From an uncultured Candidatus Saccharimonas sp. (GTDB taxonomy: Bacteria > Patescibacteriota > Saccharimonadia > Saccharimonadales > AQU-01): a DNA stretch of 64,000 nt. Below the pieces are notes generated by a model that ran no database searches, was not told where the DNA came from, and worked only from the letters and a program-made list of their open reading frames with translations. Below, piece by piece: positions 1 to 10,702 of the stretch. Both the position numbers and the translations under genes were made by a program. The stretch covers positions 82,842-146,841 of the forward strand of contig CALRGT010000001.1 in the NCBI GenBank assembly GCA_943358095.1, read 5' to 3'. Positions within the stretch are counted from its first letter, which is position 1; each line of letters begins with the position of its first letter.

Positions 1-2
1 AG

Positions 3-25
3 CACCCCTGCAAAGGGGTGTTTTT
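3..25 (+). terminator. Rho-independent terminator of a gene upstream of the window
   Basis: 7-bp stem CACCCCT/AGGGGTG with GCAA loop, followed by TTTTT. Confidence 0.7.
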
Positions 26-53
26 CTTTGGCTCGCTCGGTCCAGCCCCGAAC

Positions 54-390
54 GGCAACCCCAACGACTTTAGTCGGTGGAAGGTTGCCAGTTCGCTAAT
101 TTTGGAAAAAGTAATTTTCTTTTTACAAAATTATATCCTGAGACCGAGTCGCATAATGCGACGCGGCACGAGGGAGTATTCTGGCCTCCCAACTTGTTGG
201 CAGAGGTTGCCAGTTCGGTCGCTAGTCTAATGCCCGAGATTAATCTCGGCGCGTAGATTAGCGTGCGCTAGCTGGCCTCCCGAGCCAAAATTAAATACCC
301 TACCTTGCGTGGGGTATTTAATTTTGCTACCAGCGAAGCTGGTTTTGAACCAGCGACCCGCCAACTTGTTGGCGGTAGGTCGCGCCGTTC
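54..390 (+). other. Three related nested stem-loop modules (54-95, 181-217, 353-390) in an ORF-free region; class unknown
   Basis: Each module is an outer stem (GGCAACC/GGTTGCC; CTGGCCTC/GAGG..CCAG; GCGACC/GGTCGC) around a CCAAC..GTTGG hairpin, followed by AGGTTGCCAGTTCG (identical 14-mer at 82-95 and 204-217; AGGTCGCGCCGTTCG at 377-391). Confidence 0.4.
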
Positions 391-492
391 GATAATTGGC
401 ACGATTAGTGACAATTATATGCCGAAGCCAAGAAAGACAAATCCTATTAAAATTAAAGTCTTTCATGGCCTGAAGCTATAATCCAGTTCCCG

Positions 493-567
493 GAGCCAAG
501 CTGGAATAGATAAAGTCAGAACTGTAAAAAGGTTCTGACTTTTTGTTACCCAGACTGGAACTGAAAC
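493..567 (+). repeat. Copy A of a ~75-bp direct repeat flanking the DHH gene
   Basis: GAGCCAAGCTGGAATAGATAAAGTCAGAACTGTAAAAAGGTTCTGACTTTTTGTTACCCAGACTGGAACTGAAAC aligns by eye with 1522-1597, with only scattered substitutions. Confidence 0.8.
514..547 (+). terminator. Intrinsic terminator (or attenuator) inside repeat copy A
   Basis: 9-bp stem AGTCAGAAC/GTTCTGACT, 9-nt loop, then TTTTGTT. Confidence 0.6.
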
Positions 568-581
568 TAAGGGACTCTGGT

Positions 582-1499
582 ATGATAAATATAATGAAAA
601 TTGTAACCGCCGGCTCCGCCTATATGGATATTGACGCTTATGCAGGGTGTATTGCCGAAGCAGAACTGTTGAGGCTCAATGGCGAAGATGCTTATGCAGC
701 AAGTAGCGCCCCACTCAACGAAAGTATTCCCAGAAGTCTGAGAGTGTTGGGGATAAGCCTTAAAGAGTATCAACAAGGTGAGAGTGATGAATTTATTCTT
801 GTAGATGTCTCAAAAGAAGATTTTTTTGATCCGATAGTTAAGAATGGAACTGTAGTTGAGGTAATAGATCATCACCCAGGACAGGAAAAGTATTGGCAAG
901 AAAAAATTGGAGATAAAGCGGATATTGAATTTATAGGGGCTTCCTGTACACAAATCTTTGAACGCTGGCAAGCTGGTAATAGATTACAAGAAATGAAACC
1001 AGAAATTGCACGTCTATTGGCGGCAGGGATACTAGACAATACTCTGAACTTTAATGCCGATGTGACAACTCAACGAGACAGAAATGCGTACGCAACTCTG
1101 AAACAAGTTGGTCATTTACCTGACGATTTCGCCGCTCAATACTTTACTGAATGCCAAGCATCAATCGAAGATAACTTTGAACAAGCAGTTTCAAACGATA
1201 TAAAAACAATGGAAGAAGCACCAAAATTACCACATACATTTGGGCAGCTAACTGTCTGGGACGCAAGAGCTTTTGCACTCGACAAAAAGGACTTAATAGC
1301 CCAGATATTAAATAATCGTAATTCTGATTGGGCGTTAAACCTAATAAGTATTAGTGAAGGTCGGAGCTATTTACTGAGTGATAGCGAGAGTGGTCAGACT
1401 AAGCTTAAGGCTTTAATTGGTTCAGATTTTAATGAAGGTATTGCCGAAGCAGATAGGCTCTGGCTCAGGAAAGAACTATTGAATCTCGCTTTATCATAG
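582..1499 (+). CDS. DHH/DHHA2-family phosphoesterase (family II pyrophosphatase/exopolyphosphatase-like)
   Basis: Motifs MDIDAYAG, LVDVS, VIDHHPG and GILDNT, plus a DHHA2-like C-terminal half ending ADRLWLRKE. ATG at 582 follows AAGGGA at good spacing. The ORF-track start at 543 is a TTG inside the upstream terminator. Confidence 0.75.
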   Translation: MINIMKIVTAGSAYMDIDAYAGCIAEAELLRLNGEDAYAASSAPLNESIPRSLRVLGISLKEYQQGESDEFILVDVSKEDFFDPIVKNGTVVEVIDHHPGQEKYWQEKIGDKADIEFIGASCTQIFERWQAGNRLQEMKPEIARLLAAGILDNTLNFNADVTTQRDRNAYATLKQVGHLPDDFAAQYFTECQASIEDNFEQAVSNDIKTMEEAPKLPHTFGQLTVWDARAFALDKKDLIAQILNNRNSDWALNLISISEGRSYLLSDSESGQTKLKALIGSDFNEGIAEADRLWLRKELLNLALS

Positions 1500-1521
1500 T
1501 TATAACTTCCTCTATCGTGGT

Positions 1522-1597
1522 GAGCCAAGCTGGAACAGATAAAGTCAGAACTGTGAAAATGGTTCTGACATTTTGTATACCCAGAATGGAATTGAAC
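1522..1597 (+). repeat. Copy B of the ~75-bp direct repeat flanking the DHH gene
   Basis: Aligns with 493-567 and begins 23 nt after the DHH stop codon. Confidence 0.8.
1543..1574 (+). terminator. Intrinsic terminator of the DHH gene (inside repeat copy B)
   Basis: Stem AGTCAGAAC/GTTCTGAC followed by ATTTTG. Confidence 0.6.
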
Positions 1598-1718
1598 CCG
1601 ATTTCACACTAATAATCATAAAAGCCTACGAGTACCAAAGCAAAACTCCAACGCCATTTTTTAGTATCCGTTGATCTGACACTTTGGCGTAAACATGCAC
1701 ACTTTTGCTCAGAAAAGT

Positions 1719-1934
1719 CTAAGAACTTGTCAGGTCAGATAGCTTGACCTTTAAGGCTTTGGCTAGTTTCTCAAGCGTTAGCAGAGATGGGTTGCGTAGT
1801 CCGTTCTCAATTTCTGAAATATAGCTTCGGTCTACTTTGGCGGTAAAGCCAAGCTGTTCTTGAGATAGTCCCTGACTTTTTCGTAAATCGTGTAGTTGCT
1901 TACCGATCTTTTGCTTTGAACTTGTTCTGCCCAT
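1719..1934 (-). CDS. XRE-family helix-turn-helix transcriptional regulator
   Basis: LRKSQGLSQEQLGFTAKVDRSYISEIENGLRNPSLLTLEKLAKAL is a classic Cro/C1-type HTH. Confidence 0.85.
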   Translation of the reverse strand: MGRTSSKQKIGKQLHDLRKSQGLSQEQLGFTAKVDRSYISEIENGLRNPSLLTLEKLAKALKVKLSDLTSS

Positions 1935-1968
1935 GCAGAAAGAATGGCATTGTGGACGTTATATCTCA

Positions 1969-1997
1969 GTAGGCTATTGCCTACAATTTACTTGTAG
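1969..1997. promoter_or_regulatory. Two overlapping palindromes in the divergent XRE / small-ORF promoter region (candidate operators)
   Basis: GTAGGC-TATT-GCCTAC (1969-1984) and CTACAA-TTTAC-TTGTAG (1981-1997). Confidence 0.4.
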
Positions 1998-2069
1998 TGT
2001 AACTGTATGTATGCAAAAATAACAATATAGACGATAATCCACAGAATAGAAGTAATTAAGGAGGTAAGT

Positions 2070-2306
2070 ATGGTCGGAAAAGTAGGAAAAATAGTTATAG
2101 ACACAGTTTTATCATTTATGTTTTTCATAGTGGCAGCGATTATACTCGAAGCGATTGCACAGATGATTTTTGGGAAAAAGAGTGGCGGTGGTGCTGATGT
2201 TAATGGTCACGTAATGCTTGCAATAGATTGCTTGCTTACATTAGCTTTTGCTGTTTGTTTCTATAAGTTCGTTCATCTTGGTAAGAATAGCAAAGAAAAA
2301 GAATAA
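2070..2306 (+). CDS. Small two-TM membrane protein, function unknown
   Basis: Strong SD TAAGGAGG upstream of the ATG; two hydrophobic helices (FMFFIVAAIILEAIAQMIF, LAIDCLLTLAFAVCFY). Confidence 0.6.
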   Translation: MVGKVGKIVIDTVLSFMFFIVAAIILEAIAQMIFGKKSGGGADVNGHVMLAIDCLLTLAFAVCFYKFVHLGKNSKEKE

Positions 2307-2473
2307 TGATCGAGGCACTCGTTGGAGGTCTTTTTGTTGGTTGGATTACCCGTAGAGTTATTAAAAGTTACGAAAAGGACAGCACGAAAACAAAACCAAA
2401 AAACAAAAGGCGTAAAGAAATCGACGAAGAACTGATCACAGCGATTCTTCCTGTTATTAACAGCAAAAAATGA
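2306..2473 (+). CDS. 55-aa single-TM, Lys-rich protein (below the ORF-track cut-off)
   Basis: TAATG stop/start overlap with the preceding ORF. My translation is MIEALVGGLFVGWITRRVIKSYEKDSTKTKPKNKRRKEIDEELITAILPVINSKK. Confidence 0.45.
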   Translation: MIEALVGGLFVGWITRRVIKSYEKDSTKTKPKNKRRKEIDEELITAILPVINSKK

Positions 2474-2483
2474 CGTTGAGTGG

Positions 2484-2837
2484 TCAAAATTTGGGGAAAA
2501 AATTTGGGGGGATTTCGTCCTTAATATTATCTAGTGTTGAAGCCTCCGGTATAGACTGCAAGACGACATCATGGCGAAAAGTCGGAGCTGGGCTAGATTG
2601 TTCGTGCAAAGCACTAATAGACAAACTACCAATTGATTTAATAAATAAATCTTGCGGCTTATACGGCAATTCACTTATGTTTTCTGCCTGATAATAGACA
2701 GCAGCCTCGACCCTTTGCTGCGTATGCTGGGGCTCTGACTCAAACATTGGTATTGTTGCTGCCAAAGCGACGCCAATAGACGCGGCCTTAACTAATCTTA
2801 ATTTTTCTGACATTGCTGACCTCACTTTAGTGCGCAC
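2484..2837 (-). CDS. Hypothetical secreted or anchored protein
   Basis: N-terminal hydrophobic segment AASIGVALAATIPMF. The start is more likely the ATG at 2813 (GTGAGG upstream) than the GTG at 2837. Confidence 0.5.
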   Translation of the reverse strand: MRTKVRSAMSEKLRLVKAASIGVALAATIPMFESEPQHTQQRVEAAVYYQAENISELPYKPQDLFIKSIGSLSISALHEQSSPAPTFRHDVVLQSIPEASTLDNIKDEIPPNFFPKF

Positions 2838-3134
2838 GCAAACATAGACTCGACAAAATTCGAGCGCGACGTAATAGCGTTTTTAATAACTTCTTTTTGT
2901 CAGTGGTTTGGCTATATTAGTTTTTGACTGAAACACGGTCTGGTTCCACGCTTAGCGTCTCTGTCAAAATAGTCAAATGTTTCACCAACAAAAGTAATCT
3001 TATTTTAACATAATATTCATATTAAGCCAAAATTCACCAAGCACCATCATGTATCTTCAGCCCAATAACCGATACTATGTCGTCATGATAGTTGATATAA
3101 TAGAACTATAAGTAGTAGCGAGGGGACGAAGAAG

Positions 3135-3815
3135 GTGTTAAAAAGGATACTCAAAAAAGTTCGAGCCAATAGTAGGCTAGATTGGCTTTCATATTCGGCT
3201 ATGGCCTTGAGTATATTGTTAATTATTTTTGGATCAGTAGGGCAGGCGGACAAGTACAAAACGACACACAGTACTACAAAGTTACAATCAGTTGTCGAAA
3301 GTCCGACAACTAATACTAGTGAAGCGCCGGTAGATGTAAATGACAAATCTTATATCGTCGCTCCAGACAAACCAAGAGCGCTGATCATGCCAAGTATTGG
3401 AGTTCATGGCTTTGTTCAACAAGTCGGAGAAACTACAGACAGTGCAATAGATGTCCCTAATAACATAAACCTAGCAGGTTGGTACAAAAACAGTGCCAAG
3501 CCAGGCGACGCGGGTCTTAGCATCATTGACGGGCATGTGTCGGGCAAGTATAACCCGGCGATCTTCAAGAACTTACAAAACCTCAAAACAAACGATATCT
3601 TTACCATAGAGTTTGGTGACGGGCATCGCAAAGAGTTCAAGGTTGCGAGCATCGGCAATTTTACATTAAACGACGCCAATCAAGAACTATTTAAGCAAAA
3701 TCCCAAAATAACTAATCAACTAAACCTAGTTACTTGTAGCGGCAAATACGACAATTCTAATCAGTCCTACGACAAGCGCCTAATCGTTGTTGCCCAGCTA
3801 GTATCCTACCTATAG
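3135..3815 (+). CDS. Sortase-family transpeptidase
   Basis: N-terminal TM, catalytic-type His (IDGHVSG), LVTCSG Cys motif and a downstream Arg (KRLIVVAQ). Confidence 0.8.
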   Translation: MLKRILKKVRANSRLDWLSYSAMALSILLIIFGSVGQADKYKTTHSTTKLQSVVESPTTNTSEAPVDVNDKSYIVAPDKPRALIMPSIGVHGFVQQVGETTDSAIDVPNNINLAGWYKNSAKPGDAGLSIIDGHVSGKYNPAIFKNLQNLKTNDIFTIEFGDGHRKEFKVASIGNFTLNDANQELFKQNPKITNQLNLVTCSGKYDNSNQSYDKRLIVVAQLVSYL

Positions 3816-3848
3816 CAGGGGGATGAATAATATATAAAATATCAGTTG

Positions 3849-4340
3849 CTAGACGGCCACTGAAAGCAGTTTCTTAATATCACTTGCTATCTCTGAAGGC
3901 TCAACAGCAGGGGCGTATCGCTTAACGACGACACCGTTTCGATCAACTAAAAATTTCGTAAAGTTCCACTTAATCCTTCCGCCAAACAAGCCAGATTGCT
4001 GCTTCTTTAAATATTTATAGAGCGGGGCAGCCTTGATGCCGTTTACATTAATTTTGGCAAAAGTCTCAAAAGTAACACCGAAATTTACCTGACAAAAACT
4101 AACATTCGCCTCGTCGCTATCTGGTGCTTGATTAGCAAATTGATTGCAAGGGAAGTCCAATATCTCTAGTCCGTCGCTTTGATAATTTTTATAAAGCTCC
4201 TGTAAACCGGCATACTGTGGCGCAAAACCACACTTTGGAGCAGTATTAACTATCAACATAACCTTGCCTTTATATTTATCCAAAGTGACCGTGTCGCCAC
4301 CTACTTGCTTAATCTTGAAATCATAAATTGTCATATTCAC
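3849..4340 (-). CDS. Glutathione peroxidase-family thiol peroxidase
   Basis: NTAPKCGFAPQYAGLQELY and WNFTKFLVDRNG motifs. Confidence 0.85.
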   Translation of the reverse strand: MNMTIYDFKIKQVGGDTVTLDKYKGKVMLIVNTAPKCGFAPQYAGLQELYKNYQSDGLEILDFPCNQFANQAPDSDEANVSFCQVNFGVTFETFAKINVNGIKAAPLYKYLKKQQSGLFGGRIKWNFTKFLVDRNGVVVKRYAPAVEPSEIASDIKKLLSVAV

Positions 4341-4393
4341 CCCTATAATTAGTACCTATACATACTACCTGAATATGGGGAACGTGACTACGC

Positions 4394-5083
4394 TTAAGAT
4401 TTAACTATTGAAGCAAATATGACGGTATTCTTGGTGTAATGTCCTGTTGAACGGTCAAAGGACCCACCACAAGTGATAAGACGCAGGCCGGGGTGGTCGA
4501 TGGCCCCATAAACCTCTTGAGTGCCAAAATTATCTTGGCTGTATTCTTGTAGAGCCTCAACAGCGAAGGTAACGATACTGCCGTCCGCTCTAGTTATGAT
4601 AATTTTATCTTCTGGGAGTAGCTCTTTTAAACGCCAGAAAACTGACTTTGAAGCATAAGTCACAAGATGAGCATCTATCACTGACGGACCGATTTCACCC
4701 GGCGAGGGACCTCCAACGTACCAACCAGCCACCTCACTAAGAACAGGTGGAGTAGCCAGGGAACCGTCAGCTAACAAGCCTACAGGAATCACATCTGTAT
4801 CGACTCCTATTCTAGGAATAACTATGCGAATGGGTTGCGAGCGCGGCATGCCGATAGCGGCAGTAGGCTTGATAGGGGAATAATAAGTGGTCGCGGGCTT
4901 AAGTCTAGGAGTAGATAAAGCGCAGTAACTAAGTAGCAACACATTGGCGATAATTAATACCGCAAATAATCTAAGAATAGACAAAGATGGCCGACCAACC
5001 GCCGACCATCTACTACCAACACTTTTATTTACGATTTTAGTCGCAAATTTTCTTTTGGTTATTGGGCGAATTTTCTTAAACAT
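4394..5083 (-). CDS. Sortase (class F-like)
   Basis: N-terminal TM, VIDAHLV His region, LRLITCGGSFD Cys motif. Confidence 0.8.
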   Translation of the reverse strand: MFKKIRPITKRKFATKIVNKSVGSRWSAVGRPSLSILRLFAVLIIANVLLLSYCALSTPRLKPATTYYSPIKPTAAIGMPRSQPIRIVIPRIGVDTDVIPVGLLADGSLATPPVLSEVAGWYVGGPSPGEIGPSVIDAHLVTYASKSVFWRLKELLPEDKIIITRADGSIVTFAVEALQEYSQDNFGTQEVYGAIDHPGLRLITCGGSFDRSTGHYTKNTVIFASIVKS

Positions 5084-5625
5084 AAACCTAAGGCAAGGAT
5101 TACGGTTGAACCAATAATACCTAATGCTTGAACATCAGAGCTATGAGCTACGCCGGCCTTTACGCCACCTTTTGGAATAGTACTAGATGCGTGAGGAACG
5201 GTGGTGATAGGCGTTGCAGGTTTTGTTGGTACCACAGGAATTACAGGTGTTTTTATTGGAGTAACGCAGTGTTCGTGTTCGTGTTCGTGTTCGTGTTCAT
5301 CATTGTCGTCATGAGATGAATGATCACTATCATCTTTATGAGGCTTATCGTCACCATCATTGTCATGATTCGTATGATCGCTGTGAGTATTAGTATCTTC
5401 TTTCTTTGTTGAAGAATGCTCGATCTCTGAACTGTTAGATTTCTTTGTGTGCTCGGTCTTTGAATGATCTGAGTCACGTGAATCTTCAGTAGTACGTGAA
5501 TGAGTAGTCTCGCTATCTTCACTTCTAGAATGAGCCATAGCTGAACTCGGCATAGCAACAGTAGTAGTCAAAACTATCGAAGCTAAAACAATAATAAAGT
5601 TCTTAATTGATTTCATGGATAACAC
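5059..5625 (-). CDS. Secreted His/Asp/Glu-rich protein with a C-terminal hydrophobic anchor and basic tail
   Basis: Signal peptide MLSMKSIKNFIIVLASIVLTTTVAMPSSAMA, (EH)x5 and many HS/HD runs, C-terminus ALGIIGSTVILALGLCLRKFAQ. The 3' end overlaps the sortase start by 25 nt. Confidence 0.7.
   Translation of the reverse strand: MLSMKSIKNFIIVLASIVLTTTVAMPSSAMAHSRSEDSETTHSRTTEDSRDSDHSKTEHTKKSNSSEIEHSSTKKEDTNTHSDHTNHDNDGDDKPHKDDSDHSSHDDNDEHEHEHEHEHCVTPIKTPVIPVVPTKPATPITTVPHASSTIPKGGVKAGVAHSSDVQALGIIGSTVILALGLCLRKFAQ
5269..5298. repeat. Hexanucleotide tandem repeat (GTGTTC)x5, encoding (EH)x5 on the minus strand
   Basis: Five perfect tandem copies read directly from the sequence. Confidence 0.9.
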
Positions 5626-5761
5626 CTTGCCTTCCTTAAATAAAACTATACTAAACCATATTATCTGTCATTATAGTTAATTTGTCAATAATGTTTTAAT
5701 AAATGCATGCGGACCTAGCATGATTCAATCCCAATAAGTGCATACATGATAAGATACAATA

Positions 5762-6172
5762 ATGAGAAAAATTGCTAAAGCACTAATAATAGATACCGAG
5801 GGCAAGGTCCTTGTACTATACCGTAGCGACAGCCACCCACATTTCGCTAGACACCTAGACTTTCCTGGTGGAATTGTCGAGCCCGATGAATTAGCAGTAG
5901 AAGCCGTAGCACGCGAAATATACGAAGAAGCGGGCATAACAATAAAAAAGACAGATCTCAAACTCATACACGAAGAGACCATGCCAAGCGGCAAAATTTG
6001 CATGCTTTACTCGTGCGCCCTTAAGTCAGAAAGACCAGTCGTCAAAATAAGCTGGGAGCACGGACACTCAGAATGGCTAACTACAGATCAAATAATCGAC
6101 ATTCCTATGCCAGAAAAAGTAGACGATTACTTTGAAATGGTCGTCCGCTACTTACGCTCAACAATAGCCTAG
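5762..6172 (+). CDS. NUDIX hydrolase
   Basis: Nudix box GGIVEPDELAVEAVAREIYEEAGI. Confidence 0.85.
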   Translation: MRKIAKALIIDTEGKVLVLYRSDSHPHFARHLDFPGGIVEPDELAVEAVAREIYEEAGITIKKTDLKLIHEETMPSGKICMLYSCALKSERPVVKISWEHGHSEWLTTDQIIDIPMPEKVDDYFEMVVRYLRSTIA

Positions 6173-6174
6173 TA

Positions 6175-6720
6175 TTGACTATTTATAGTTCTTATGCTAT
6201 TATATACCTAATGCACGAAATATTGTGTCGAGAATTGAAATACGAAGAAGGCAACAACGAACTACAGGCCTATCTAAAAGATTCTCCTGGATCGGACTTT
6301 TCTGGAGAGTTAGTAGACAATTCTGACGGAATAAAGTCTTTTACATACTTATCTCTTCATGTTAAGCCTGAAATGCGTCGCCAAGGAATCGCAAGTAAAT
6401 TAGTTAGTAATCTTGCCGCCGCTGCTATACATTACAGAGCGAATAGTTTTGAGGGCAGCGTAAGCTCAGAACATACTCTAAAAATATTTGATAAACTTTT
6501 TGGTGAGAATAACATCGAATACTACGACTATGACAATGAAAATAACAGAGTATACCTCCCTATGACCAACTCTCAAGCAATATCATCTCTAGAAAGAGCT
6601 GCTAATTTTGAATCTAATCAAGAATGGCGCGATCACAACATAGAAGTTGACGTTAATCTATCTGATCCTAAATTAAGTCTACCAACACCGGTATTTGAAG
6701 ATCACACAAACAGAAAATAA
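6175..6720 (+). CDS. GNAT-like acetyltransferase domain protein (weak)
   Basis: VKPEMRRQGIASKLVSNLAAAA resembles GNAT motif A. The start is ambiguous (TTG 6175 or ATG 6211). Confidence 0.5.
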   Translation: MTIYSSYAIIYLMHEILCRELKYEEGNNELQAYLKDSPGSDFSGELVDNSDGIKSFTYLSLHVKPEMRRQGIASKLVSNLAAAAIHYRANSFEGSVSSEHTLKIFDKLFGENNIEYYDYDNENNRVYLPMTNSQAISSLERAANFESNQEWRDHNIEVDVNLSDPKLSLPTPVFEDHTNRK

Positions 6721-8194: not shown

Positions 8195-8902
8195 ATGATA
8201 ACTACTGGAGCGATTCTATTAATAATAGTCGGACTTTACTGGATATTTATGTCGTCCTACTCTCAAATTTTTGGTAATTTTCCATTTCGTGGCAAGACTA
8301 ATGCGAAGCTGATAGCCCTTACTTTTGATGATGGACCAAACGAACCATTCACAACTGATATACTCGATTATCTCGATAGTAAGAATATAAAGGCTACATT
8401 TTTTCAGGTAGGTAATTGTATTAATAAGTACCCCGAGGTCACACTTCGTGCATATAAGGCGGGTCATGTCATCGCCAACCATTCTTTATCCCATAAATTC
8501 ACAAAATACTTTAGCGAACCAAGTTTTACTAATGAGATCAGCGCTAATCAAACCATTATTAAAAATATAATCGGCCAAACGCCTGCGTTATTTCGACCTC
8601 CTTGGCTATTTAGAAACCCATTACTGCTAAGAACCGTCAGGAGACTAGGCATGACACCAATTTCTGGAGTGTTTGGACATAACCTAGAAATATTCCAGCC
8701 ATCAGCCAAAAAAATGGCCAAACAAGTCGTCAAGATAGCGAAACCTGGTTCAGTGATAATTTTTCATGATGGCTACGACTCAAAGGGAGGCAATCGCACC
8801 GAAACAGTAAACTCAATCAAGATCATCGTCGAGGAACTATCCACTAAAGGCTATGAATTCGTGACCGTCGACAAACTTTATGGCATAAAAGCGTATCAAT
8901 AA
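8195..8902 (+). CDS. Polysaccharide deacetylase (NodB homology domain)
   Basis: LTFDDGPN, HVIANHSLSH and FRPPW motifs. Confidence 0.85.
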   Translation: MITTGAILLIIVGLYWIFMSSYSQIFGNFPFRGKTNAKLIALTFDDGPNEPFTTDILDYLDSKNIKATFFQVGNCINKYPEVTLRAYKAGHVIANHSLSHKFTKYFSEPSFTNEISANQTIIKNIIGQTPALFRPPWLFRNPLLLRTVRRLGMTPISGVFGHNLEIFQPSAKKMAKQVVKIAKPGSVIIFHDGYDSKGGNRTETVNSIKIIVEELSTKGYEFVTVDKLYGIKAYQ

Positions 8903-8949: not shown

Positions 8950-9351
8950 GTGAAAGAATATATGAAGAATATTACCAAAAAATACACTATAAAAGCGCCA
9001 ATCTCATCTGTCTGGCGAGCCCTTACTGATCCGTCGGTAATACAAGAATGGAGTGGTGTACCAGCGATCATGACTACCCAACTCGTCAAATTTAGCCTAT
9101 GGGGTGGTGATATTCACGGCATTAATACTGAGGTAGCTGAGAATGAATTATTAAAACAGGACTGGTATAGCGAGGATTGGGCTCAACCGTCAAAAGTCAC
9201 CTTTACGCTTGAAGTCAAAAAGAACAATACCGTACTGACTCTACTGCACGAGGGTTTCCCGGAAGCTGAAGCAAAAGATCTAGAGCATGGCTGGGAAGAA
9301 TTCTACCTAAAGCCTATTAAGCAGCTTCTAGAGGAACAATACTCCAATTAA
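8950..9351 (+). CDS. SRPBCC/AHSA1-family protein
   Basis: TIKAPISSVWRALTDPSVIQEWSG N-terminus and a size typical of START-like AHSA1 proteins. Confidence 0.7.
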   Translation: MKEYMKNITKKYTIKAPISSVWRALTDPSVIQEWSGVPAIMTTQLVKFSLWGGDIHGINTEVAENELLKQDWYSEDWAQPSKVTFTLEVKKNNTVLTLLHEGFPEAEAKDLEHGWEEFYLKPIKQLLEEQYSN

Positions 9352-9937: not shown

Positions 9938-10702
9938 ATGAGCAAAACAATTACACTTATCGGTTTGAGAAAATTCAATTATTTTATGGCGGCACTCCAC
10001 GGCCTCCAAGCAGTCGCCTTACTGGCATTAAGCAAAAACTTTACTCTGCCTATCAGCGCAGGCTATCTGAGCTGGGACCAGGCAGCCATGAGAGTAGTGC
10101 CACGAAGTACTGTGCTCTTTAACTTGTCGCTGCCATTACTTATCGCCATGTTCCTAATAATATCGTCGGTAGCTCATATCATAATAGCAACCGTATACAA
10201 CAAAACTTATAACGAAAACCTACAGAAGGGCATCAATAAAGCCCGTTGGTTTGAATACTCTATATCAGCAAGCATTATGATGGTTGCGATTGCATTACTA
10301 GTTGGTGTCTACGACCTTACTAGCCTAGTTATGATCTTTAGTCTTACTGCAATCATGAACTTGCTTGGACTTGTCATGGAAATACACAACCAAACAACTA
10401 CTAAGACTAACTGGGTTAGTTATTGGATAGGCTGCCTAGCAGGAATCATACCTTGGTTAGTTATAGCATTTTACTTCTGGTTGTCAGCAAGCAAGGAAAC
10501 AGCTGCACCAGTATTCGTCTACTTTATTTTTGTATCCCTCTTCATCTTCTTTAACTGCTTTGCAATCAACATGGTTTTGCAATACAAGAAGGTCGGCAAG
10601 TGGAGTAATTACCTATATGGTGAACGTGCCTATATCATCCTGAGCCTAGTTGCTAAATCTCTACTAGCATGGCAGGTATTCGGCGGCACACTTCGTCCAT
10701 AA
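9938..10702 (+). CDS. Heliorhodopsin
   Basis: Seven TM helices. Matches HeR hallmarks as I recall them: LHGLQAVALLAL (His), ARWFEYSISASIM (counter-ion Glu), SVAHIII (His), WSNYLYGERAYIILSLVAKSLLAWQVF (Schiff-base Lys). Confidence 0.9.
   Translation: MSKTITLIGLRKFNYFMAALHGLQAVALLALSKNFTLPISAGYLSWDQAAMRVVPRSTVLFNLSLPLLIAMFLIISSVAHIIIATVYNKTYNENLQKGINKARWFEYSISASIMMVAIALLVGVYDLTSLVMIFSLTAIMNLLGLVMEIHNQTTTKTNWVSYWIGCLAGIIPWLVIAFYFWLSASKETAAPVFVYFIFVSLFIFFNCFAINMVLQYKKVGKWSNYLYGERAYIILSLVAKSLLAWQVFGGTLRP

Follow-up and report, generated by a model that had tools for sequence, protein, structure and literature searches.

What is the densely folded DNA at the extreme start of a 64-kb stretch (hereafter the window) of a Saccharibacteria (TM7) genome: a new RNA gene, or the trace of events at the level of the DNA itself? 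The region, at positions 28-482, lies in front of a gene for a DHH-family protein (582-1499). The original prediction, made from the sequence alone, had described three related stem-loop modules with tRNA-like fragments, and had proposed a new small-RNA or riboregulator family, decayed tRNA genes, or scars of repeated integration at a tRNA. We observed that the region is a patchwork of exact pieces of a tRNA-Asn gene and small palindromic fillers, and not a new RNA gene. It is probably what a hotspot of recombination or integration, anchored on tRNA-Asn(GUU), has left behind in the DNA, namely gene-less mini-cassettes and attachment-site scars.

Saccharibacteria are ultra-small episymbionts with reduced genomes. 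To our knowledge, few mobile elements have been recognised in them, and little is understood of how accessory genes enter and leave their genomes. The clade studied here is a freshwater lineage, and we compared the window with related loci that were labelled L001-L024. The DHH-family protein showed 98% identity to that of the metagenome-assembled genome (MAG) ELA521 (L002), 90% to that of the Candidatus Saccharibacteria MAG ELA371 (L003), and 82-84% to those of Saccharimonas and Saccharimonadaceae MAGs (L004, L005). At the DNA level, the gene of the window was 96% identical to that of L002 and 85% identical to that of L003. Loci L009 and L010 belong to an ELA371-like lineage and supplied the reference tRNA-Asn for the matching of fragments. 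A look-up through the upstream gene of L002 yielded solely L002-type loci.

The tRNA-like fragments are pieces of a tRNA-Asn gene

The intact tRNA-Asn(GUU) of L009 and L010 is 75 nucleotides (nt) long (TCGGGAGTAGCTCAATGGTGGAGCAAGAAGCTGTTAACTTCGAGGTTGCCAGTTCGAGTCTGGCCTCCCGAGCCA; the type is CTGGCC...CCCGAGCCA). The 14-mer AGGTTGCCAGTTCG, which had been noted as an identical tail in two of the three modules, indeed has exactly two copies in the 64 kb (82-95 and 204-217), while the tail of module 3 has diverged. This 14-mer matched nt 43-56 of the tRNA exactly, covering the variable loop, the 5' T-stem and four bases at the start of the T-loop (a piece that we call T5), and at the second site the identity extended to window 203-217 (GAGGTTGCCAGTTCG, nt 42-56). 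Two exact words came from the far side of the T-loop (T3): a partial one at 180-190 (TCTGGCCTCCC, nt 59-69), and another at 272-287 (CTGGCCTCCCGAGCCA, nt 60-75) that is the exact 3' end of the tRNA, with the discriminator G and CCA. The longest word common to tRNA-Asn and 28-482 measured 16 nt, whereas neither 300 shuffles nor 204 other 455-nt stretches gave one longer than 11 nt. Since these words match within nt 42-75 exactly, the tRNA-like fragments are true fragments of a tRNA-Asn gene. The exact identity to the 3' portion of a tRNA that is looked for in attachment-site remnants was thus found (words of 14, 15, 11 and 16 nt; at most 11 by chance).

The sole part of tRNA-Asn represented in the region was its 3' third (nt 42-75), in exact copies. 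No word of at least 10 nt from nt 1-41 was found in window 1-600, and on this ground we rejected a split or permuted tRNA gene. The idea of decayed tRNA genes was therefore only loosely right in that the pieces do come from tRNA-Asn, but only the 3' third is there, the copies are exact and there is no 5' half.

Pieces of a second tRNA-Asn variant were also observed. The minus-strand T-arm that had been pointed out at 338-354 (GCTGG-TTCAAAA-CCAGC) belongs to an inverted fragment (338-361) of the tRNA-Asn type seen in L005, with a complete T-arm and with words of 12 nt (347-358) and 11 nt (351-361) on the minus strand. The tail of module 3 (377-391, AGGTCGCGCCGTTCG) is a diverged T5 that resembles the L005 type, and the sequence at 483-498 (CCAGTTCCCGGAGCCA) is a degenerate T3 ending in CCGGAGCCA, as in tRNA-Asn of the L002 and L005 types; the L002 counterpart of 483-498 is CCGGCCTCCGGAGCCA. 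The only 3' suffix common to the three tRNA-Asn variants is GAGCCA.

We also evaluated the region for intact RNA genes. ARAGORN found no tRNA in it, the only tRNAs of the window being those for Ser, Leu and Glu elsewhere, and no comparable arrays were found around these three. A search of window 1-700 with Rfam 15, both at the gathering thresholds and at E <= 10, found no tRNA (RF00005), tmRNA, RNase P, signal recognition particle, 6S or other family; the best match was RAGATH-25 on the minus strand at 296-349, with 21.8 bits against a gathering threshold of 49. A functional tRNA gene was rejected, as there was no cloverleaf by ARAGORN and no RF00005 match in 1-700, and the earlier remark that no cloverleaf accompanies the T-arm holds for the same stretch. 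Two predicted open reading frames (ORFs), 18..230 (+) and 227..466 (-), had been suspected to be spurious. They had no Pfam match and lie on tRNA fragments and palindromes that are absent from the nearest relative, in agreement with that suspicion.

The same junctions enclose genes in related loci

In this region T5 is never contiguous with T3. Either a filler (X1, X2 or X3) stands between them, or their order is permuted, and the only contiguous block that reaches the tRNA's 3' end is 272-287. All fillers begin directly after GTTCG and end directly before CTGGCC or CCAG. Three kinds of junction are shared with gene-carrying DNA in the relatives, namely after GTTCG, before (TATT)CTGGCC, and after the terminal GAGCCA.

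Gene-carrying inserts between T5 and T3 measured 1.9 to 4.5 kb, with some genes on the opposite strand. In L009, a five-gene segment of about 4.5 kb with X1-like ends lies between T5 (9167-9179) and T3 (4700-4708), and encodes a DAO-type oxidoreductase, a methyltransferase, a phosphoribosyltransferase, an ORF product with a sub-threshold AAA_17 match only, and Ham1. In L003, an F420-ligase-like gene and a NUDIX gene lie between T5 and T3 (1311-3157), and in L009 the same gene pair is likewise enclosed by a T5 and a T3. As the ends of the L009 cargo segment are X1-like, X1 looks like an empty version of such a cargo-carrying segment.

The GAGCCA junction bounds smaller, single-gene units, which consist of a terminator, an extended -10-like element (identified by eye), a gene, a conserved motif of 25-45 nt and GAGCCA. 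Such units form arrays, with six sites in 5.4 kb in L005, five in 4.3 kb in L014, and several in L002 and L020. The commonest boundary motif, M28, is GTTATAACTTCCTCTATYGTTGT, and its copy in the window (1499-1526) overlaps the stop codon of the DHH gene; other classes are GTTCTAACTTCCATCACCACCC, GTCCGTGACCTGTAAGC and GATTCCAACTCATCCCCTCGAAC. In its extended form of about 50 nt (AAATC.TGCTTTATCA.A-GTTATAACTTCCTCTATYGTTGT-GAGCCA), M28 follows unrelated genes, and overlaps their stops (TAG TTA TAA), with an A-rich terminator hairpin behind it in every case. M28 sites were seen in L002 (5338-5366), L003 (1082-1110 and 4054-4082) and L005 (4418 and 6918), and at least 15 M28-related sites lie behind unrelated genes in L002-L005, L011, L013, L014 and L020. 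In L013, such an array seems to carry a block of defence genes, in which an MmeI-type restriction-modification gene, a DEAD/ResIII helicase gene and a T5orf172 gene (714-6636) sit as one block between the M28 sites at 1-24 and 8614-8642.

Several identities for M28 were considered by eye, and none was adopted. It was weighed as a sigma-70 promoter and as an RNA hairpin, and its upstream part showed no covariation. As a dif/Xer site, only one half resembles a XerD arm. A DNA-uptake sequence would be expected in hundreds of copies, against one in the 64 kb. The resemblance to the anticodon region of tRNA-Asn (GTTA[TA]ACTTC) was too short for a tRNA piece that has lost its T-arm.

The array varies between close relatives and is shared with distant ones

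A pattern scan of metagenome contigs returned four contigs, all with the same kind of locus. Two of them (L009, L010) have the array behind an intact tRNA-Asn, and in the other two (L008, L011) it follows an M28 site ending in GAGCCA. In L009, tRNA-Asn is followed by a palindromic terminator, then by a T5 hairpin module, X2 and further elements. A position downstream of, and co-oriented with, an intact tRNA was thus seen in L009, and also in L002, L022 and L024 for their own tRNA variants.

The nearest relative has none of this array. In L002, an intact tRNA-Asn(GUU) lies 150 nt upstream of the DHH unit, and a second copy of the last 16 nt of its own tRNA-Asn stands directly before that unit. 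L002 and L022 share this order (tRNA-Asn, a different filler of about 150 nt, a second end of their own tRNA, DHH), with nothing of window 28-482. Upstream of DHH, the loci L002, L022, L004 and L005 keep only the counterpart of window 490-600. In the other direction, window 80-190 (111 nt) was 100% identical to L003 3282-3392 and to L010, and window 189-281 was 97.8% identical to L011, although the DHH gene of the lineages that share these blocks (L003, L010, L011) is only 85% identical. L009, L010 and L003 differ from each other by whole units at the T3 and GAGCCA junctions. The DNA between the repeats is therefore found in some strains and missing from others, and the suggestion of scars from repeated integration at a tRNA gained support from the exact tRNA-Asn pieces, from this variable presence in close relatives and from the place of the relatives' array behind an intact tRNA-Asn.

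The distance from tRNA-Asn to the DHH unit was 0.16 kb in L002 and L022, and 4.4 kb, with nine intervening ORFs, in L005; such differences are as predicted by accretion at the tRNA-proximal end. Two assemblies break exactly at the repeats. The L021 contig breaks at its position 1 (reverse strand) inside the T-loop of tRNA-Asn (..GTTGCCGGTTCGAG), and the L001 contig starts 8 nt before T3 (L001 position 1 corresponds to window 264). As these assemblies are independent, the breaks suggest population heterogeneity at the junctions.

A separate array of about 200 nt in the L002 lineage is made from pieces of that lineage's own tRNA variant (CCGGCCTC, TTCGAGTC, CCGGAGCCA). Just upstream of its intact tRNA-Asn, L002 also has a degenerate copy of the 5' part of tRNA-Asn (4040-4094; TCCGGAC.., TCAATGGTAGAG), which is interrupted by the hairpin CTTCCGCCAGCGGGCGGATC; a near copy of this hairpin, CTTCCGCCAACTGGCGGATC, lies downstream of the tRNA. 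A further module of this lineage stands behind terminators and consists of a short hairpin and the palindrome CGAACCGYAGGTTCG, which contains a T-loop-like GGTTCG (L002 4217-4240, 5400-5440 and 6270-6290; L024 downstream of tRNA-Asn).

We considered whether X1, X2 and X3 might instead be non-autonomous transposable elements, resembling miniature inverted-repeat (MITE) or palindrome-associated (PATE) elements and moved by an HUH or other transposase, that insert 3' of GTTCG and for which the tRNA fragments are harmless preferred targets. Every filler starts right after GTTCG and has conserved left and right ends with subterminal hairpins, target duplication is absent, gene-less and cargo versions have the same ends, and the 100% identity across lineages suggests recent movement. 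Yet no transposase was found in the window or in L001-L019, no copy lies elsewhere in the 64-kb window, and all copies in the metagenome scan (L009, L010; L008, L011) sit in one kind of locus. Such elements would also leave the GAGCCA-bounded gene units and the multiplied tRNA pieces unexplained, and we consider this explanation unlikely. A dispersed repeat of the REP (repetitive extragenic palindrome), BIME (bacterial interspersed mosaic element) or MITE type was rejected, as self-BLAST and pattern searches showed that, within the 64 kb, nothing from 1-600 recurs except the terminator module at 1522-1596.

The palindromes are read as features of the DNA

The repeats, hairpins and minus-strand T-arm of the original prediction are all present where it had placed them. 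Window 24-550 folds with -226 kcal/mol, and both the plus strand (z = -11.9) and the minus strand (z = -9.95) are structured far beyond chance. Hairpins were confirmed at 144-166, 220-263 and 286-326 (94% complementary). The proposal that the three modules share one design was correct for modules 1 and 3, which are inverted repeats GAAC..GTTC around GCAACC/GGTTGC or GCGACC/GGTCGC, but not for module 2 (180-217). In module 2, two tRNA pieces in permuted order form the outer stem through their natural T-stem pairing, and when folded alone this module was no better than shuffles (z = -0.47).

The stretch with module 1 (36-96) folds with -27.2 kcal/mol (z = -3.6), and the stretch with module 3 (329-391) with -29.9 kcal/mol (z = -3.95). 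Between the two modules, GCAACC/GGTTGC is replaced by GCGACC/GGTCGC, a two-sided change. Homologues of module 1 are the first modules of L009 and L011, the latter with the compensating change AATTGG/CCAATT. Among seven copies of the X2 hairpin (window, L003, L009 twice, L010, L011 twice), 96.8% of cells were paired and five pairs were altered on both sides. For the whole 23-pair structure of X2 hairpin and T-stem, none of 500 shuffles reached the observed covariation measures. The changes in X2 show selection for pairing. The T-stem pairing GCCAG/CTGGC showed no covariation and is broken in diverged copies. A version of X2 deleted between its CGCTAG repeats occurs in L009 and L003. In the X1 family (X1 of the window, X1' of L003, X3 of the window), the hairpin sequences have been exchanged, yet the architecture is kept. 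In seven arrays neither strand folds better than the other, with no excess of G-U pairs on one strand, which fits DNA palindromes.

It is improbable, in our judgement, that the array is transcribed into structured small RNAs or tRNA-like processing modules, for example with the X1 and X2 hairpins released from T-arm-like scaffolds, or that it serves as a riboregulator or decoy. The extreme predicted structure (z = -11.9), the position between two intrinsic terminators (1-26 and 514-547, the latter preceding the DHH gene), the retained architecture of the X1 family, and the X2 hairpin, with its five two-sided pair changes and one invariant G-U on the plus strand in seven copies, are what such RNAs would lead one to expect. 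Against them stand the lack of an Rfam family even at E <= 10 and the lack of a convincing promoter (one weak match at 369-396, against a mean of 1.6 in shuffles). The minus strand folds equally in the seven arrays with unbiased G-U counts, and the region is absent from the nearest relative and not syntenic. The T-stem pairing lacks covariation and is broken in diverged copies, and the T5...T3 junctions enclose gene DNA of 1.9 to 4.5 kb, some of it on the opposite strand. On these grounds the idea of a new small-RNA or riboregulator family is not supported. Given the T-stem without covariation, the absence of strand bias and of a convincing promoter, and the gene-sized inserts on the opposite strand, we read the palindromes as DNA-level features, that is, ends of mobile segments, recombination-site structures or bidirectional terminators, and not as a dedicated small RNA.

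It is very improbable that the region arose by decay of tandem duplicates of whole tRNA-Asn genes with later hairpin insertions and no mobile DNA: the clustering of several tRNA-Asn pieces, one of them inverted, and the degenerate 5' copy just upstream of the tRNA in L002 would agree with it, but the window represents nt 42-75 only, its copies are exact and not decayed, and the content turns over between near-identical genomes and yet is shared at 100% with distant ones.

A probable integration hotspot anchored on tRNA-Asn(GUU)

Fragments of tRNA genes are usual by-products of integration at these genes (PMC9897764). Integrases classically use three sublocations, of which the T-loop and the asymmetric 3' end are two (bioRxiv 10.1101/2020.11.02.365908). 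At the hotspot that we favour, site-specific recombination would have placed mobile segments at two points of the tRNA sequence, one in the T-loop and one at the extreme 3' end, with part of the tRNA duplicated at each insertion. Crossover at GAGCCA would let units pass between lineages without damage to the tRNA; since GAGCCA is common to all tRNA-Asn variants, it would be harmless in any of these lineages. Newcomers would pile up on the tRNA side of older units, such as the DHH gene. Window 1-287 and 288-498 may then be two gene-less mini-cassettes, each ending ...GAGCCA, the first of which (1-287) would bear the nested T-loop insertions X1 and X2. The recombining enzyme would act in trans, and the palindromes were probably kept for folding or binding of the segment ends, or for transcription termination.

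Several observations weigh against this reading. The window begins inside the first terminator, so that the intact tRNA-Asn upstream of it is inferred and not seen; of that context, the window shows only the terminator arm TTTGGCTCG. Searches with phmmer, using XerD, lambda Int, Hin-like and Y1-transposase queries, gave no match in the six-frame translation of the 64-kb window and of about 170 kb of L001-L019 (part of each genome). Pfam found no recombinase domain among about 35 flanking ORFs, and three scans of viral contigs (with the T3..T5 pattern, M28 and the tRNA-Asn 3' end) found no phage or viral contig with these motifs. Classical integration leaves a contiguous block of identity that runs to the tRNA's 3' end, unlike the T5 and T3 pieces, which are always split at the T-loop. 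The junctions (TTCG|GTC.., TTCG|CTA.., ..TAG|CTGG, ..TATT|CTGG) have no common 7-nt overlap. The T-loop junctions are not accounted for by a canonical tyrosine-integrase exchange, and for textbook integration the units are very small. The compensatory changes of X2 show a selection for pairing that pure scars would not need, and breakpoints at repeats are also expected from homologous recombination after natural transformation. Either a trans-acting recombinase (integron-like or HUH-like) or recombination after natural transformation would fit the present data.

Comparison with known systems

A close parallel to the hotspot is found in the partial tRNA-gene copies (attL/attR direct repeats) that tRNA-targeting integrases leave and in the tandem accretion of islands at one tRNA or tmRNA gene, as in the ssrA islands of Dehalococcoides (PMC3146451). 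The array resembles these in its exact, co-oriented copies of the 3' part of the tRNA downstream of the intact gene, in bounding strain-variable DNA, in the use of the T-loop and the 3' end, and in its tandem units. It differs in that no integrase was found in or beside any unit, and in that the units are tiny (0.05 to 4.5 kb), often with one gene or none. Its T-arm copies are split and sometimes permuted or inverted, with junctions that lack a common overlap, and at the 3'-end junction only 6 nt (GAGCCA) are identical, beside a separate conserved motif of 25-45 nt. The region is thus a known kind of feature with three unusual traits, namely fragments split at the T-loop, palindromic fillers with compensatory changes, and no recombinase in the sequences examined.

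Integrons, and clusters of attC sites without an integrase (CALINs; PMC4889954), share with the array short, mostly co-oriented single-gene units between site-like elements of 60-140 nt with hairpin potential, ORF ends that run into the site, gene-less cassettes, and the entry of new units at the anchor-proximal end. In a comparison with attC made by eye only, modules 1 and 3 had ..AAC/GTT.. inverted termini, more fully (C)GAAC..GTTC(G), as well as a 6-bp inner box, an internal loop and a variable terminal hairpin, with CCCGAAC/GTTCGCT off the consensus. The array differs from integrons in that no IntI or tyrosine recombinase was found and the anchor is tRNA-Asn and not attI. As judged by eye, its sites deviate from RYYYAAC/GTTRRRY, and the M28-GAGCCA sites that bound genes lack an inverted repeat. 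The units are not promoterless, as a terminator and a -10-like element belong to each of them.

We suggest tentatively, as a possibility on which we would not insist, that this freshwater clade has an integron-like gene-cassette platform on tRNA-Asn, in which a trans-acting recombinase captures and stacks units and exchanges them between lineages. The sites of such a platform would be the T-loop, the universal GAGCCA end and the 25-45-nt boundary motifs (M28 and relatives). The folded palindromes (modules 1-3, X1, X2) would be recombination-site structures, and 28-482 would be two empty cassettes. The units would hold from none to a few genes, for nucleotide-housekeeping enzymes, helix-turn-helix regulators, or even a restriction-modification and helicase block. 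We found no account in the literature of Saccharibacteria integrons or of tRNA-linked cassette arrays.

Two other comparisons were made. The REP/BIME elements of enterobacteria, the BOX elements of pneumococci and Correia elements are alike in being mosaic, strongly folding intergenic DNA with compensatory upkeep of hairpins and terminator neighbours, but they are dispersed, in tens to hundreds per genome, while the array is confined to one locus in the 64 kb and has tRNA-Asn cores. The split and permuted tRNAs of Nanoarchaeum and Cyanidioschyzon also have permuted T-arm halves (T3-linker-T5) and include a reduced-genome episymbiont; the array differs in lacking a 5' half, a D-arm and an anticodon arm, its inserts can be kilobases of genes on either strand, and the relatives have intact tRNA-Asn.

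Features of the window

The features of the region and of the DHH unit are listed in Table 1.

Table 1. Elements identified between positions 1 and 1527 of the window
Feature	Position	Strand	Remarks
Palindromic intrinsic terminator	1-35	+	Stem CACCCCT/AGGGGTG, then T-run
Terminator right arm TTTGGCTCG	27-35	+	Complementary to CGAGCCAAA (tRNA-Asn 3' end and A-tract)
Module 1	49-96	+	T5 inverted repeat CGAAC-G-GCAACC...GGTTGC-CA-GTTCG closing the hairpin CCAACGAC-TTTA-GTCGGTGG
T5 copy 1, AGGTTGCCAGTTCG	82-95	+	Exact match to L009/L010 tRNA-Asn
Filler X1	96-179	+	Hairpins 97-133 and 144-166; right end ...CGAGGGAGTATT; between T5 and T3, at the would-be T-loop
T3, partial, TCTGGCCTCCC	180-190	+	Last T-loop base, 3' T-stem, start of 3' acceptor strand
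Linker hairpin CCAACTTGTTGG	189-200	+	Between T3 and the next T5; repeated at 361-372
T5 copy 2, GAGGTTGCCAGTTCG	203-217	+	tRNA-Asn nt 42-56
Filler X2	218-271	+	54-nt imperfect palindrome; CGCTAG direct repeats at its bounds; between T5 and T3
T3, full, CTGGCCTCCCGAGCCA	272-287	+	tRNA-Asn nt 60-75
Terminator-like A-tract, 18-bp AT-rich stem, T-tract	288-328	+	Directly after GAGCCA
Inverted tRNA-Asn fragment GCGGGTCGCTGG-TTCAAAA-CCAGC	338-361	-	L005-type words
Module 3	347-391	+	Inverted repeat GAAC-CA-GCGACC...GGTCGC-GCC-GTTC(G) around CGCCAACTTGTTGGCG
Filler X3	392-482	+	X1-like: ATAATT-hairpin-AATTATAT, long hairpin 424-470, then ...GCTATAAT
Degenerate T3 and acceptor end CCAGTTCCCGGAGCCA	483-498	+	Ends in GAGCCA
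Terminator module AGCTGGAATAGATAAAGTCAGAAC..GTTCTGACTTTTT..	499-566	+	Start of the DHH unit
DHH-family phosphoesterase gene	582-1499	+	Conserved unit 3' of the array in the window, L002, L004, L005, L013 and L014
Boundary motif M28, ..AATCTCGCTTTATCATA-GTTATAACTTCCTCTATCGTGGT-GAGCCA	1479-1527	+	Overlaps the last DHH codons and stop; a terminator follows

Because the right arm of the first terminator is complementary to the tRNA-Asn 3' end and A-tract, a ...GAGCCA site is implied just upstream of position 1. The layout GAGCCA-AAA..hairpin..TTTGGCTC was also seen directly 3' of the intact tRNA-Asn in L009 and at the M28 sites of L011 and L014. The terminator-like stretch at 282-330 folds with -24.1 kcal/mol (z = -7.4), and in the relatives a hairpin likewise follows GAGCCA at tRNA-Asn and at every cassette boundary. 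A terminator module (AGCTGGAAYAGATAAAGTCAGAAC...) stands on either side of the DHH gene, its two copies (499-566 and 1528-1596) being 91% identical, and this module also follows GAGCCA sites in L002, L003, L004, L005, L011, L013 and L020. The linker is part of a 13-mer, CCAACTTGTTGGC, present at 189-201 and 361-373, and it varies among copies in L003, L009 and L010 (TAATTGG, TCACTTTTGACCGG and a 27-nt version). No relative of X3 was found, and BLAST of 288-489 matched nothing in any locus examined.

Further into the window we observed two sortase genes (3135-3815 on the plus strand and 4394-5083 on the minus strand), a glutathione peroxidase gene (3849-4340, minus strand), an ORF for a His/Asp/Glu-rich protein with HEHEHEHEH repeats (5059-5625, minus strand) and a heliorhodopsin gene (9938-10702, plus strand; Pfam PF18761, E = 9e-99).

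Implications for Saccharibacteria

These results remove a false lead, since this strongly folded, gene-free stretch is no new riboregulator and its two predicted ORFs should be left unannotated. They point to a compact gene-exchange hotspot beside tRNA-Asn in Saccharibacteria, and the exact junctions (GTTCG, CTGGCC, GAGCCA and M28) make the question of such a hotspot testable. Genetic tools for these bacteria could also use the junction sequences as landing sites. The significance would be greater if a tRNA-Asn-anchored cassette platform proved to be an active system.

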